64,000 bases of DNA, taken from the NCBI GenBank assembly GCA_963747655.1, contig CAVVFS010000002.1, positions 201,789 through 265,788 of the forward strand, in the 5' to 3' direction. The notes under the pieces were generated by a model. It saw nothing but the letters and a program-made list of their open reading frames with translations. It searched no databases and was not told the DNA's origin. Positions within the stretch are counted from its first letter, which is position 1, and each line of letters begins with the position of its first letter. This DNA comes from an uncultured Gammaproteobacteria bacterium. Lineage in GTDB: Bacteria > Pseudomonadota > Gammaproteobacteria > Enterobacterales > Enterobacteriaceae. Positions 52,194 to 57,820 of the stretch are shown here, piece by piece. Position numbers and translations under genes: made by a program.

Positions 52194-53208
52194 ATGTCAG
52201 TTGACAGCACGCTCACGACCGAGCAGCAGTCTGGGCGTAAACCACGCAGGCAGTCTGTGTTAGTAAACCGTATCGCCAGGCGGAGTACTGAGCGGCGCGC
52301 TGGTGCTGTGGGCGGCGGTAACGCTGTCCTTTATTAGCGTCTATTTGGCGCCTGGAGATATCGTCAGTCTGTTGATTGGCGAGCAGGTTCGCACCCCGGA
52401 AATTGAAGCGGCAATTCGCGCCGAATGGGGCCTGAATCAGCCGTTGTATATGCAATATTTGCACTATCTATGGCGTATCCTGCACGGCGATTTTGGCCGT
52501 TCTTACTTGCTTAATACCGACGTTACCGGGCTGATTTTAAGCCAGCTTTGGCCAACGCTTAAAACTCACCGGACTAGCACTGGTGGTAAGCATTGTATTT
52601 GCCGTCATTATGGCGGTCGCCACCGCTCATCGCCGCTGGGGTCGTCGCATTGCCGGTTCGATGGAGCTATTACTGGCCTCAACGCCGTCGTTCTGGCTGG
52701 GGATCGTGCTGCTGTTTATCTTCAGCTTTACCCTGCGCTGGTTCCCGGTAGCCGGTGATCGCAGCTTCTCTTCGCTGGTGCTTCCGGCACTGTCTTTAGG
52801 GCTGGCTCAGGGCGCGGTGATTGCACAGGTGTTGCGTCGTGGGCTTGAAGACGCGCTCGATGAACCTTTTGCTCTGACACTGCGCGCCTGGGGAATCGGC
52901 AATACTCACCATTCGCCTACGTCATGCATTGCGTCATGCGGCTTTGCCTGCGGTAACCCTAACCGGCTGGCTGATTGGTGGCCTGCTTAGCGGTGCGGTG
53001 ATCACCGAACAGGTATTTGGCCGTCCCGGGTCTAGGGCAAAATCACCGTCGATGCCGTGCTGGGTAAAGACCTGCCGGTGGTGTTGGCGGTGGCTATTTT
53101 TTCTGCCTTTGTATACGTCGTGATGAGTACGCTGGTGGACATTCTTTATTTGCTGATCGACCCACGCCTGCGTGAAGCGCGATGCTTCCAGGCGAGGAAA
53201 ACTCATGA
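52194..53208 (+). CDS. DppB/OppB-type permease (frameshifted)
   Basis: LAPGD...WGLNQPLYMQY; TPSFWLG; VITEQVFGRPG. Confidence 0.82.
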
Positions 53209-54048
53209 GCCAGACTCTTTCTAGCCGTTGGCGTAAAACGCCAGTATTCCCTGGGCTATGGCCTGGCGCGTGTTTTATCTCTTTCTTAGTGTGACTGGCG
53301 GTGCTGTTGCCGGGTTTGATCAGTCATTACGATCCGCTTAGCGCCGATCCGGTTAACTCCATGCTGCCGCCCTTCCTGGCAGCACTGGCTTGGCACCGAT
53401 CAACTGGGCCGCGACGTGCTGACTCGCATTATTTATGGCAGCCGTTATTCCATGCTGATTAGCCTGGCGGCGATGGCGATTGCGGTCAGCGATCGGCACC
53501 GTGCTGGGCCTGCTGGCCGGTCTGGCAAAAGGTCCGGTAGACGAGTTTATCAGCCGCGCAGTGGACGTTATTTCCGCCTTCCCCGACCTGCTGCTGGCGC
53601 TGATGCTGATTGCCTTTACCGGTCCTGGCACCGTTAACCTGATTTTTGCTCTCGGCGTCGCTTCCATTCCGCGCTTCACCCGCGTAGTGCGTGCACAAAC
53701 TTTCTTGTGATGTCATCAGGTTATGTTGAACAGGCGCGCACCTTTGGCCTAAAACGCCGCGTGCTGATCTGGCGACACGTTTTGCCGCACGCCATCGCTC
53801 ACGTTCCCGCATTGGCGACCCTAGGGCTGGGCACCGCGATTATCGGCACCGCCGGCCTGAGCTTTCTAGGGATGGGCCCTCAGCCACCTACCGCCGAATG
53901 GGGTCTGATGCTGGCCGAAGGCAGAAACTATTTACGAAATGCCTGGTGGATTGCCGCTTTCCCCGGCGTCGCGATTACCCTGACCGTGATTTCGGTCAAC
54001 ACTCTGGGCCGTTACTGGCAGGCCGCTTTTGAAGGAAAACAATCATGA
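53205..54048 (+). CDS. DppC/OppC-type permease (frameshifted)
   Basis: LGRDVLTRIIYG; GLSFLGMGPQPPTAEWG; WWIAAFPG. Confidence 0.82.
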
Positions 54049-55635
54049 GCCACGAACTGTTTATCGATATCCAAAATCTGCGGATCCGCTTTCGGCGACA
54101 AAACGGTGATCGGCGGGTCTGAATCTGCAATTGAAACACGGTGAGTCCATCGCCTTTGTCGGTGAATCCGGCTCAGGGTAAAACGGTAACAGCGCGCAGC
54201 CTGCTGGGCTTGCAGGATGCCAAAGCCAGTATTACCGCCGATCGATTTCTGATCAACGGTGAAGACATGCGCGGTGCCAGCCAGCGTCGCTGGCGTAAAA
54301 TTCGCGGCAGACAAATAGGTTACGTGTTGCAGGATGCGCTGGTGTCGCTCGATCCGCTGCGCCAGATTGGTCAGCAACTCGTGATGCGCTGACCGCCAGC
54401 CAAAATATCGCGCGCGGTTCTCTGCGCGCACAGTCAGTCGCGTTACTAAAATCGGTGGGAATTCCCGATGCAGAAGCTCGATTAAGCGCCTATCCGCATC
54501 AGCTGTCGGGCGGCCTGCGTCAGCGGGCATTAATTGCCACCGCGCTGGCCGGAAAGCCCAGCCTGCTAATTGCCGATGAGCCCACCACCGCGCTGGATAT
54601 GACGGTACAAAAGCAGATCCTCGATTTGCTGCAAAAACGACGCGATAACGGGCAAAGTCTGCTGTTGATTAGCCACGATTTGTCGGTGGTCGGACAGCTG
54701 GCCGACCGTATTCTGGTGATGAAAGACGGCGAGGTGGTTGAGGAAGGCAATGGGAAAGCCTGCTGCGCTCCCCACAGCATCCCTATACAAAACAGTTGCT
54801 TGCCGCGGTGCCAAGTCCGGCGACGCGTGGCTTTAAACTCTCCGGTGAGCCTGGGCAGCCATTACCTGCAAAAACGATTTCTACCGCTAAACCAGTGCTG
54901 GAAGCCAGTGGACTGTTTAAACAATACGCCAAAAAAACGGTAGTTAATCAGGTGAGCTTTACCCTTTCTGCGGGAGAAACGTTAGGGATTGTCGGCGAAT
55001 CTGGCTCAGGAAAATCTACCGTCGCCAAAATGGTAATGGGATTAATTGAACCAGGCAGCGGGACGATTAGCATTCAGGGCCAGCGCTGGAGCCAGGTGCC
55101 GGAGGCGGAACGTCGTCTGCGCCGCCGAGGGATCCAGTTAATCGCCCAAGACCCACTAAGTTCGTTTGATCCGCGCTATAACGTGGAGAAAATCATTGGT
55201 GAAAGCCTCGACAGCGTGGAGATTTACGGCGACGAGCGTAAACGCCGTATTCGACAACTGTTGGATGAAGTTCAGCTTGGGCCGAGCTTTATGAGCCGCT
55301 ATCCTCGAGAGTTATCCGGTGGTCAGCGCCAGCGTATTGCCATTGCCCGCGCTTTTGCGCCAAACCCGGCATTGCTGATAGCCGATGAACCGGTGAGCGC
55401 ACTGGATGTTTCAGTACAGGCGCAAGTACTGGATTTGCTTGCAGAAATGCAGGCTGAACATCATACCGCCCTGCTGTTTATCTCTCACGATCTCGGCGTG
55501 GTTCATCATATTGCCGACCGCGTGGCAGTCATGAAAGACGGCGTGGTGGTTGAGCAAGGTCAGGTCGATAACGTATTCCATCGCCCGGCGCACCCGTGGA
55601 CTCAGCAGCTGATTAACTCATTGCCAACCTTCTGA
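54045..55635 (+). CDS. Tandem-domain peptide ABC ATPase (frameshifted)
   Basis: Two GESGSGK motifs, YPHQLSGG and YPRELSGG, DEPTTALD and DEPVSALD; ends HPWTQQLINSLPTF. Confidence 0.87.
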
Positions 55636-55866
55636 CTTAAGTCATTTTTCTTAAAGGGCGGGACTTTACAGAGCATAAACAACTCGGTAGTATCCCGCCC
55701 AGACATCAGGGTAATCCCCTTTTGCGTAAGCGTTAACGTTAACCAACGCACCATTTGCAGGCTTAATCTGCTTATTGTGCGGTGATTTTATGACTCAGCC
55801 CCAACCTTCTTTTGCACGTGCCTCTGTTGTTTCCAGCCCCGGTTTCTTTCTATTTATCGTTTTGAT
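55549..55866 (+). repeat. 318-bp direct repeat, left copy
   Basis: GTTGAGCAAGG...ATCGTTTTGAT matches 57503-57820; compared by eye, two mismatches (55575 A vs 57529 G; 55850 C vs 57804 T). Confidence 0.95.
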
Positions 55867-56044
55867 GATAATATTTGCCGTAGTGGCGACTAATGCCTCG
55901 TAGCTAAGCCAGAGGTTGGTTTAGTCTCGGCATCTACTTTCGTATAAACTTTATCTTGTGTAACATGGTTATCTTTTAATTTACTTTAAAGCACACAGGT
56001 TCGTTGGATTTTTAGACGACATGTGTTAAGTCAAGAGCATAAAA

Positions 56045-56968
56045 ATGAGTTACCGTCCTGAGCAAGTTTTTCGCTTTAATGGGTCTGTTGGTGTCTCTGG
56101 CACTAATAATCTCGAAGATGTAAAACATCTTCAGGAAATGATTATCAGTGCAGGATATAACCAAATTAGCGGCAATCATGTAAGGGTGAATGGCCAGATG
56201 GATAGTAATACCAAGATGGCGATTATTTGGTATCAGAGATTGTTAAATATGTCTCCTTCTGGACTAGTTCATCCTATGGAAACATGGTTTTTTAACATGT
56301 TCAGCAAAGCTATTTCCCCACACTGGCGGCCTCGACACACTATTGGAACTTTGCATGTGCGAGAAGGCCAGTTCACTTTCAATGCAGAAGGTAGAGATTT
56401 TATTACCGCTGTAGAGCCTTTTAAGCAGCCACTCAACATGCCAAATTTCTCCCGTGTACTTTATTATCCGGGAGGGGGTTCTGGTGTTACCCTTGGGAGA
56501 GGGTATGACATGAAGCTACGTAGCTCAGGAGAAATTCTTTCTGACATTAGGGCAGCGGGCATTGAGGAATATAAGGCTGTTATTTGTTCTAAGGCTGCGG
56601 GTTTAAATGGCCGTCAAGCTGCAAAATTTGTAAGATATTATGGACCTTTAGTCGGAGAGATTACCCATTTGCAGCAAGTGCATTTGTTTGAAAACTCCTT
56701 TCAGAGTTATATCCGCACGGGCCAAAGAATCTTTAATTTTAAAAAAAATTTAACACATAGCCAAATGACATGGAATAAAATAAATGCAAGAGTAAGGGAT
56801 ATATACTTAGATAGTCTTTACCAAGGGTGTTATTCCGCTTCTAAGTTTGCCTTTTTAATTATAAAGAATAATATTAACGACATTCGTCACTATCTAAAGA
56901 CAGATCCTTTTCAAGTCAACACGTATGGAAGAAACATTCTAAGACTGAGGTATATAAGTGAATTATAA
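56045..56968 (+). CDS. Peptidoglycan-binding domain plus pesticin-C-like muramidase
   Basis: N-terminal GTNNLEDVKHLQ...VNGQMDSNTKMAIIWYQ (PG-binding-like); C-terminal FTFNAEG...YPGGGSGVTLGRGYDM (pesticin/T4-lysozyme-like catalytic region). Confidence 0.8.
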   Translation: MSYRPEQVFRFNGSVGVSGTNNLEDVKHLQEMIISAGYNQISGNHVRVNGQMDSNTKMAIIWYQRLLNMSPSGLVHPMETWFFNMFSKAISPHWRPRHTIGTLHVREGQFTFNAEGRDFITAVEPFKQPLNMPNFSRVLYYPGGGSGVTLGRGYDMKLRSSGEILSDIRAAGIEEYKAVICSKAAGLNGRQAAKFVRYYGPLVGEITHLQQVHLFENSFQSYIRTGQRIFNFKKNLTHSQMTWNKINARVRDIYLDSLYQGCYSASKFAFLIIKNNINDIRHYLKTDPFQVNTYGRNILRLRYISEL

Positions 56969-57434
56969 ATACATTCTAATGGCAGCCATTGTCCCATTGC
57001 TTACTCAACAAGCTTTAGCTGCTCCTGATCAGAACCTTTTAACGGGCACAGAGTCCACTTATTGCCAACAGAAGGGAATGAGCGAGTCAAAAAATTTTGA
57101 TTCTTATATTAGCTGTATGCAATCAGAGGAGGATAAATCTAAAAAGTTATTGAATGCTACCTTCAATAAAGCACTTTCAAACGTTCAATCCGAAAATTGG
57201 CTTCTACCAAATGTTAATTATGAAAGCGAGAAATCAAAAATAACTAGCAAAAACAAATTTGATTTGCAAGATGATCAAAATCATTGGCTAAAGCACAAAT
57301 CTGAATTTTGTAATGTTTTAACATCTAAAATAAGTGATTCAGCTAAGATGTACTCAGTTCTACTCATGCAATGTCATATAAATATGGATAAACAACGAGC
57401 TAAGGAACTGAATTATCTTTTGAATAATAACTAA
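56958..57434 (+). CDS. LprI/DUF1311-family lysozyme inhibitor, putative immunity protein
   Basis: Signal peptide, four Cys, LNATFNKAL...DQNHWLKHKSEFC...C...QRAKEL; start overlaps the muramidase end by 11 nt. Confidence 0.78.
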   Translation: MNYKYILMAAIVPLLTQQALAAPDQNLLTGTESTYCQQKGMSESKNFDSYISCMQSEEDKSKKLLNATFNKALSNVQSENWLLPNVNYESEKSKITSKNKFDLQDDQNHWLKHKSEFCNVLTSKISDSAKMYSVLLMQCHINMDKQRAKELNYLLNNN

Positions 57435-57447
57435 TGTTTTAAAATTT

Positions 57448-57484
57448 AGGACTGCAAAGCTGAAAAAATACGGTTTGCAGTCCT
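57448..57484 (+). terminator. Hairpin after the immunity gene
   Basis: AGGACTGCAAA...TTTGCAGTCCT. Confidence 0.65.
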
Positions 57485-57502
57485 CAATACTTTTAAATAA
57501 GA

Positions 57503-57820
57503 GTTGAGCAAGGTCAGGTCGATAACGTGTTCCATCGCCCGGCGCACCCGTGGACTCAGCAGCTGATTAACTCATTGCCAACCTTCTGACTTAAGTCATT
57601 TTTCTTAAAGGGCGGGACTTTACAGAGCATAAACAACTCGGTAGTATCCCGCCCAGACATCAGGGTAATCCCCTTTTGCGTAAGCGTTAACGTTAACCAA
57701 CGCACCATTTGCAGGCTTAATCTGCTTATTGTGCGGTGATTTTATGACTCAGCCCCAACCTTCTTTTGCACGTGCCTCTGTTGTTTCCAGCCCCGGTTTC
57801 TTTTTATTTATCGTTTTGAT
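57503..57820 (+). repeat. 318-bp direct repeat, right copy
   Basis: Contains the last 87 nt of the ATPase gene, the intergenic region and the first 77 nt of the MFS gene. Confidence 0.95.

Follow-up and report, generated by a model that had tools for sequence, protein, structure and literature searches.

The gene pair and its products

The window analysed here is a stretch of 64,000 nucleotides from an uncultured member of the Enterobacteriaceae (assembly GCA_963747655.1, contig CAVVFS010000002.1, C2:201789-265788). On its forward strand it carries two overlapping genes: ORF A (56045-56968), which encodes a putative muramidase of 307 residues, and ORF B (56958-57434), which encodes a protein of 158 residues with an LprI/DUF1311 domain (PF07007) and a predicted periplasmic location. 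Comparison of sequences and of predicted structures indicates that the pair is very probably an antibacterial effector-immunity module of a type VI secretion system (T6SS), acquired horizontally on a cassette of 1.6 kb, with its activity, loading and delivery in this strain being predicted ones. An earlier note, made from the letters of the sequence, had described a peptidoglycan-binding and pesticin-like muramidase lacking a signal peptide, overlapping an LprI-like gene that has a signal peptide and four cysteines, and both descriptions hold.

The ORF A protein is predicted to contain two domains. A PG_binding_1 domain covers residues 24-74 (nt 56114-56266; 25.9 bits against a Pfam cut-off of 23), and the muramidase domain, with a pesticin/T4-lysozyme fold, extends over about residues 105-307. 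By inspection, the N-terminus (MSYRPEQVFRFNGSVGVSGTNN) has no hydrophobic stretch, and the start, which reads MSYRPEQVFRFNGSVGVSG, has no hydrophobic segment. The protein therefore has no Sec signal.

The C-terminal half alone gives no significant match in Pfam, and none to PF16754 (Pesticin) at E<=1. NCBIfam, PHROGs and PDB sequence searches likewise found nothing for ORF A outside the peptidoglycan-binding domain. A sequence-level link to solved structures was sought with phmmer and with an hmmsearch using a 39-sequence profile, and was rejected, as these gave only the peptidoglycan-binding domain (1lbu, E 0.09) and noise. The link to pesticin rests on the fold. The AlphaFold2 model has a pLDDT of 78 overall and above 85 over residues 140-307. 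When it was searched against the PDB with Foldseek, ranks 1-9 were all Yersinia pestis pesticin, followed by T4 lysozyme. The match to 4arm_A has an E-value of 4.9e-4 and a probability of 1.00 over 182 columns, and the pesticin matches as a group (4arm, 4aqn, 4arp, 4epf) likewise have a probability of 1.00, with an rmsd of 3.1-3.9 over about 182 columns. Among homologues of ORF A, 19 of 39 match PF16754 weakly (best E 8e-4), and plasmid genes annotated as 'pesticin C-terminus-like muramidase' match ORF A with an E-value of 2e-19 (tblastn).

The conservation of motifs was read from an alignment of the 39 homologues. The FNAEG motif of ORF A lies at 56378-56392, with the codon for Glu115 at 56387-56389; at least 90% of the family share E115, in a block that there reads TFDAEG. 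T149, G153 and D155 are invariant, and lie in a block reading SGVTLGRGYDM in the family (GVTLGRGYD in ORF A). In TssI2 of Vibrio fluvialis, T863, G867 and D869 are essential, and the authors equate them with the catalytic residues of pesticin (PMC9620997); the full catalytic sets are E178/T201/D207 in pesticin and E844/T863/D869 in TssI2. The spacing in ORF A (six residues from T to D and four from T to G) is that of TssI2, the correspondence being drawn from the pattern and not from a residue-level structural superposition. We accept ORF A as a pesticin-type muramidase by prediction, with the Glu of FNAEG as its likely catalytic acid. At the position of E115, Rosenbergiella nectarea (P0087) has Lys and R. 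australiborealis (P0070) has Gln, both with an intact LprI partner. These replacements may represent disarmed toxins, or may be a sign that the Glu is not essential.

ORF B has a GTG start and overlaps ORF A by 11 nt; an alternative start at M8 would give a protein of 151 aa. Its N-terminus resembles a signal peptide, with cleavage predicted by inspection after ALA at residue 21 (MNYKYILMAAIVPLLTQQALA before the site and A after it). The four cysteines are C36, C53, C118 and C139. The match to Pfam LprI scores 34 bits (cut-off 22), and in PHROGs the protein matches phrog_4895, a family of unknown function. The model has a pLDDT of 89, and its best fold match is the DUF1311 structure 3GI7 (probability 1.00, TM 0.79). 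The second-best match at the family level is 4nsr, which was deposited as an 'immunity protein' and which we take to be TsiV3 of V. cholerae. Profile searches and structure prediction of the single proteins, which the earlier note had put forward as a check, gave the pesticin fold for ORF A and the DUF1311 fold for ORF B. The founding member of the family, LprI of Mycobacterium tuberculosis, is a lysozyme inhibitor and a lipoprotein, whereas ORF B has no lipobox.

The ORF directly 3' of the muramidase gene is an LprI gene in 60 of 66 related loci, and the overlap between the two is mostly 4 nt. Three cysteines are invariant among the LprI partners (n=66) and the fourth is nearly so. It is this conserved adjacency, as the basis of the proposal, that supports a role for ORF B in neutralising the adjacent muramidase. 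In Cronobacter sakazakii (L019-L022, 10001-12981), 3-4 LprI genes stand in an array behind the muramidase gene, which is what one would expect of immunity genes, and some strains of this species have, within 6 kb, two pairs of muramidase and LprI genes next to DUF3828 (Tai3-like) and DUF1493/DUF7480 genes.

Relatives and their genomic settings

The protein database contains 199 relatives of ORF A at E<=0.001 among the candidates scored. As listed, they come from Enterobacterales and are mostly named 'peptidoglycan-binding protein' or 'hypothetical protein', with one 'lysozyme family protein'. No blastn match was found in 5,426 E. coli genomes, and PADLOC gave no match. The setting of the genes was examined in 80 chromosomal loci taken with 10-kb flanks. 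Relatives with 30-35% identity over the full length are found inside T6SS clusters of Pantoea, Erwinia, Pectobacterium, Ewingella and Winslowiella. The order there is tssB-tssC-hcp-muramidase-LprI, which occurs in eight loci (Hcp Pfam E-values of 1e-34 to 1e-37), with hcp-muramidase-LprI in Pectobacterium. For relatives with 43-58% identity, the 10-kb flanks contain no T6SS structural gene. On the Enterobacter plasmid pENT01, a vgrG gene, a DUF3592 gene, a homologue of ORF A (39% identity) and a DUF1311 gene follow one another in this order, and homologues linked to vgrG are also found in Azotobacter and Pseudomonas.

The pair in the window belongs with the orphans. There is no match to vgrG, hcp, PAAR or tssC in the window, the matches in the genome all being on contigs C3, C4, C7 and C9, and the only genes flanking the pair encode an ABC ATPase and an MFS transporter; the earlier note had rightly seen no vgrG, PAAR or hcp nearby. 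The gene tssC is present in all 38 of the other orphan-bearing genomes tested and in 163 of 301 genomes in a family-wide sample, which includes many reduced endosymbionts.

In the maximum-likelihood tree, a single clade (SH-aLRT 99), sister to the hcp-linked group, takes in all 42 orphan rows, which lack T6SS genes within 10 kb and nearly all of which precede LprI genes. This clade holds the window protein, its paralogue on contig C4 and the protein of the Pantoea agglomerans type strain (L041). The tree conflicts with the taxonomy, in that near-identical muramidases are found in Enterobacter sp. TMH.L2 (L050) and Rosenbergiella gaditana (L051), with terminal branches of 0.007 and 0.027, and it follows that the cassette has been horizontally transferred. 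As judged by their sequences, the near-identity of these two indicates a very recent transfer of the cassette between families. The paralogous pair on C4 (G000:C4:164123-165506; L013 8124-9507) consists of a muramidase of 309 aa (49% identity) and an LprI protein of 153 aa, and is located in a low-GC island.

These settings bear on the idea that the pair is a housekeeping or phage-derived autolysin with its regulator, in other words either an endolysin remnant or an LprI-restrained muramidase making room in the wall for a large machine. The fold is T4-lysozyme-like, PG_binding_1 is common in endolysins, and PHROGs does contain endolysin matches to ORF A, these being weak (E 0.2) and confined to the peptidoglycan-binding domain. 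However, tblastn found no homologue of ORF A in 50,697 phage records. Among the 148 genes beside 37 orphan loci, Pfam found no Hcp, VgrG, PAAR, holin, spanin or phage family; the top family was additional LprI, and the rest were housekeeping. ORF A also has no route to the periplasm that such a role would call for, and the pair has a patchy distribution marked by horizontal transfer, multiple copies and arrays of the inhibitor. An autolysin or endolysin role is thus highly improbable. The earlier note had named homologues found mainly as phage endolysins next to holins as the pattern that would count against its proposal, and the relatives show no such pattern.

A second idea is that ORF A is a contact-independent bacteriocin, released by lysis or in vesicles and acting from outside, with ORF B as the immunity protein of the producer. 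Pesticin, which has the same catalytic fold, is a secreted bacteriocin with TonB-box and FyuA-binding domains. A mobilisable Enterobacter plasmid of 6.2 kb carries a pesticin-like bacteriocin of 734 aa with an overlapping LprI gene, so the module is shared with true bacteriocins. However, this bacteriocin aligns with ORF A only from residue 107 on, and its N-terminal import region of roughly 430 aa is missing in ORF A, which in its 307 aa has the peptidoglycan-binding domain at residues 24-74 and no translocation or receptor-binding region at the N-terminus. Moreover, the pair sits between chromosomal genes and lacks a lysis gene and any plasmid or SOS context, and the relatives are linked to hcp and vgrG and not to colicin-type plasmids. 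Release as a free bacteriocin is therefore very unlikely.

Comparison with known systems

This kind of element is already known. Pse15/Psi15 of P. agglomerans is an orphan bicistron for a pesticin-domain protein and an LprI protein, which gave T6SS1-dependent killing from a surrogate strain (2026 preprint, bioRxiv 10.64898/2026.08.01.741415). Like the window pair, it stands outside any T6SS cluster, and the gene for a protein with the pesticin domain at its C-terminus precedes one for an LprI-domain protein. In the P. agglomerans type strain, the muramidase of the pair (L041) has 50% identity to ORF A over the full length and falls in the same clade, with its support of 99. The window pair is a divergent member of the Pse15/Psi15 type, at about 50% identity. 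It differs from Pse15/Psi15 in genus and insertion site; the immunity proteins are about 20% identical, and the preprint describes no target duplications at its flanks.

The lysozyme-like effectors of hcp islands in Pantoea and Erwinia T6SS1 clusters (for example in Pantoea sp. OV426) share with ORF A the arrangement of a peptidoglycan-binding and a muramidase domain and a downstream LprI gene, at 30-35% identity. In contrast to ORF A, their genes stand immediately behind hcp within the T6SS cluster, and they make up a clade of their own; they are predicted effectors (PMC9796082), and the same study predicted LprI/DUF1311 proteins as T6SS immunity in Pantoea hcp islands.

T6SS toxins with a pesticin domain include TssI2, with its immunity protein TsiI2, in V. 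fluvialis (PMC9620997) and VgrG3cp, with TsiV3cp, in V. cholerae (PMC9927483). These have proven muramidase activity, a periplasmic site of action and cognate periplasmic immunity. Their essential Glu/Thr/Asp and Gly pattern matches that of ORF A, this being a likeness of pattern and not a sequence-level comparison. Their pesticin domain is fused to a VgrG spike, whereas ORF A would be a free-standing cargo with a peptidoglycan-binding domain of its own.

Pesticin (Pst) of Y. pestis, with its immunity protein Pim, is the best structural match and resembles the pair in being a muramidase that is neutralised by a periplasmic immunity protein. Its identity to ORF A is about 18% over the 182 structurally aligned columns, and a profile built from the ORF A family gives no sequence match to it.

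WHIX effectors with pesticin-like C-termini adjoin DUF1311 immunity genes (PMC12135965), and so share the type of toxic domain and the immunity family with the window pair. ORF A was rejected as a member of this class: the WHIX domain is bipartite, of about 300 aa, with a WHxxxH motif, and ORF A has by inspection about 30 residues between its domains and the motif HWRPRH. In enterohaemorrhagic E. coli (EHEC), the DUF1311 protein Etsi4 rescues the periplasmic toxicity of the hcp-adjacent Etse4 (PMC12981562). Etse4 (ECs_0214/0215) and Etsi4 (ECs_0213) were considered as homologues of ORF A and ORF B and rejected, since BLASTP detects no similarity; they are analogues that use the same immunity family.

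The Pse15/Psi15 type now appears as one large, horizontally mobile orphan clade, which reaches across at least 15 genera of enterobacteria and has the hcp-island effectors as its sister group. These findings support the re-annotation of genes listed as 'peptidoglycan-binding' or 'hypothetical' as T6SS muramidase effectors. The gain from the toxin pair itself is modest.

T6SS clusters of the genome and the proposed function

The cluster on contig C7 is intact, with 13 genes: tssA-C, tssE-G, tssJ-M, hcp, clpV and two vgrG, all of full length. Within this cluster (G000:C7:206454-215426), a vgrG gene is followed by a gene for a protein of 774 aa that combines a GH19 domain and an EF-hand with a WHGGIH (WHIX-like) motif, and after this come an LprI gene (212338-212814) and a TsiV3-family gene (214512-214868). 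The cluster on contig C9 (G000:C9:341000-368000) is of the Pantoea T6SS1 type, with TssC 82-94% and Hcp 89% identical to those of Pantoea varia, and it is in clusters of this subtype that the hcp-linked relatives reside. Directly 3' of its hcp gene, which is broken, are two intact LprI genes (352584-352982 and 353050-353463); this part of the cluster is an hcp island reduced to orphan immunity genes. In all, the genome carries at least five LprI genes, one TsiV3-family gene and two muramidase pairs, which makes the strain a compact example of a peptidoglycan-centred T6SS arms race.

We propose that the ORF A protein would be made in the cytoplasm, without an export signal of its own, and loaded as cargo on a T6SS encoded elsewhere in the genome. 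Loading would most likely be via Hcp, because the closest non-orphan relatives are encoded directly after hcp. In the periplasm of a neighbouring cell, the PG_binding_1 domain would hold the toxin on the sacculus, and the pesticin/T4-lysozyme-type domain would cut the glycan strands, with Glu115 as the acid together with T149 and D155, leading to lysis. The translationally coupled LprI/DUF1311 protein would be exported by Sec to the periplasm of the producer, where it would bind and block toxin arriving from sister cells. The earlier note had suggested a toxin exported in trans, either as T6SS cargo or as a bacteriocin. The first of these is favoured by the relatives linked to hcp and vgrG, by the presence of tssC in 38 of 38 genomes, by the adjacency of LprI in 60 of 66 loci and by Pse15/Psi15; the second falls with the missing import region.

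Several points weigh against this proposal. At 35 kDa, ORF A is large for the Hcp lumen, and there is no adaptor or chaperone gene near the pair. The Asp two residues before the Glu is near-invariant in the family and is replaced by Asn in ORF A (FNAEG and not FDAEG). The type-strain protein L041 is very probably Pse15, an identification that comes from the strain and the description and not from an accession match. Finally, the C9 cluster is fragmented in this assembly, with tssM, tssA, tssC, hcp, clpV and vgrG all split. With C9 in this state, delivery would need the intact C7 system or an orphan Hcp encoded on C3, and as far as the sequences go, delivery by either of these is plausible. The fragmentation was judged by the lengths of the ORFs; a count of frameshifts by comparison with the sister species G009 was tried and rejected, since the two clusters are 65-75% identical and the indel counts are alignment noise.

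The state of C9 leads to a further alternative, that the pair is a module by descent but is now disarmed. The toxin would no longer be delivered, because the T6SS1-type apparatus has decayed, and LprI would be kept as protection against the muramidase effectors of competitors. This would fit the two intact LprI genes left behind the broken hcp, the number of LprI genes in the genome and the Rosenbergiella homologues described above, in which the putative catalytic Glu is changed to Lys or Gln and the LprI partner is intact. The retention of orphan immunity genes is documented in both Pantoea (PMC9796082) and EHEC (PMC12981562). Against it, the effector ORF shows no break or truncation and still has its catalytic motif, the second T6SS (C7) has all its core genes intact, and the frameshifts in C9 could be assembly errors. 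Further, the insertion is so recent, as judged from the 2 differences in 318 positions described below, that there has been little time for selection either way. We regard a disarmed pair as unlikely, and consider the cassette to be most probably a T6SS effector-immunity module.

Structure of the insertion

The imported cassette (55867-57502, 1,636 bp) has an overall G+C content of 37%, with values of 0.32-0.42 across it compared with about 0.52 in the flanks. It is bordered by two copies of a 318-bp segment of the host. In the left copy, X1 (55549-55866), the ABC ATPase gene reaches its true 3' end, with the stop at 55635, and after the intergenic region comes a dead copy of the first ~92 nt of the MFS gene. 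In the right copy, X2 (57503-57820), it is the ABC ATPase portion (its last 87 nt) that is dead, and the MFS gene has its true start (57729) behind the intergenic region. Between X1 and X2 there are 2 differences in the 318 positions, each being a derived synonymous change in the functional copy, and the insertion is therefore recent. In four congeners (G009, G003, G004 and G002) the segment is present as a single copy and the ABC and MFS genes are adjacent.

The duplication is not an artefact of one assembler, since an independent Logan contig (L116, run ERR10755938) is 100% identical to 55820-57559 and spans both junctions with their copy-specific bases. Microhomology at the cassette junctions is 1-3 nt. 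No recombinase, inverted or terminal repeat or att-like element was found at the cassette.

The 5' end of the cassette (55867-56044, forward strand) is an AT-rich leader with a presumed promoter, and an AAGAG motif resembling a Shine-Dalgarno sequence stands upstream of the ATG; no convincing sigma-70 consensus was found in this segment. On the same strand, a hairpin 3' of the immunity gene (57444-57488) has 15-nt arms that are 93% complementary. It is the likely terminator of the cassette, and a simple terminator scan gave no call there.

Similar insertions and their possible origin

The insertion with its long target duplication is less ordinary than the pair itself, and is the part that deserves further work. 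The mechanistic question is how a 1.6-kb cassette without a recombinase inserts with a target duplication of 318 bp.

The same architecture occurs elsewhere. In R. nectarea and R. collisarenosi, a related muramidase-LprI cassette lies between duplicate copies of 271-279 bp (L042, 9654-9924 and 11494-11764; L070, 9650-9928 and 11412-11689). The duplicated segment consists of the 3' ends of two convergent genes, one YncE-like and the other for an aminotransferase, with a terminator between them. In R. australiborealis this site is empty, and its own copy of the cassette (77% nucleotide identity) is located elsewhere. In the genome studied here, a gene for a glycosyltransferase-like protein of 278 aa lies between zapB and rraA (G000:C5:443377-445051), flanked by a duplication of 181 bp (97.8%). 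The duplicated 181 bp are the 3' end of zapB and the intergenic region; four congeners have the reconstructed empty site as one uninterrupted sequence. The zapB-rraA case suggests that this mode of insertion is not specific to toxin cassettes. There are thus three independent verified cases: the window cassette, the Rosenbergiella cassette (at another site, which is empty in a sister species) and the one-gene cassette between zapB and rraA.

Two further inserts in the genome are flanked by direct repeats. On contig C3 (G000:C3:341660-344276), the intact orphan hcp gene (343155-343634) and a gene for a protein of 230 aa of unknown family lie between direct repeats of 317 bp (93%) in a region of nadA and a tRNA array; these repeats may simply be units of the tRNA array. 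On C4, beside the paralogous pair, a gene for a signal-peptide protein of 205 aa, of unknown family, is flanked by 356-bp copies (92%) of a NUDIX gene's 3' part, and its insertion site is not resolvable in relatives. Other repeat-flanked inserts of the genome were rejected: the case on C8 is a duplicated tRNA gene, and several others are REP-like repeats.

On long target duplications, the literature yielded one general survey (PMC2884548), according to which 10-18% of small variable segments have flanking repeats, mostly of less than 30 bp. Candidate processes for the duplication are illegitimate joining to two sister chromatids, template switching and the entry of a circle by Campbell-type (ends-in) integration. 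As neither neighbouring gene is damaged, such products would be favoured by selection. A more speculative suggestion, which we advance tentatively and think is probably not correct in this general form, is that target duplication of 180-320 bp is a general recombinase-free route by which small cassettes enter and leave enterobacterial chromosomes. By such a route, RecA would excise the cassette from the long direct repeats as a circle with one copy of the target, and this circle would re-enter a naive chromosome by Campbell-type (ends-in) recombination. If the pattern were general, it would explain the patchy distribution of orphan effector cassettes and their scar-free loss.

It is worth adding that the host sequence upstream of the insertion is itself disturbed. 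Relative to the sister species G009 (92.7% identity), positions 52558-54754 of the window show 15 single-base indels, of which 12 are insertions; they are located outside long homopolymers and represent either dense pseudogenisation or local assembly error. An exact look-up found neither of two fragment proteins of the split ABC operon on record. The genes of the ABC importer are split by these indels and by breaks further upstream, and the last ATPase gene (54796-55635) is intact.

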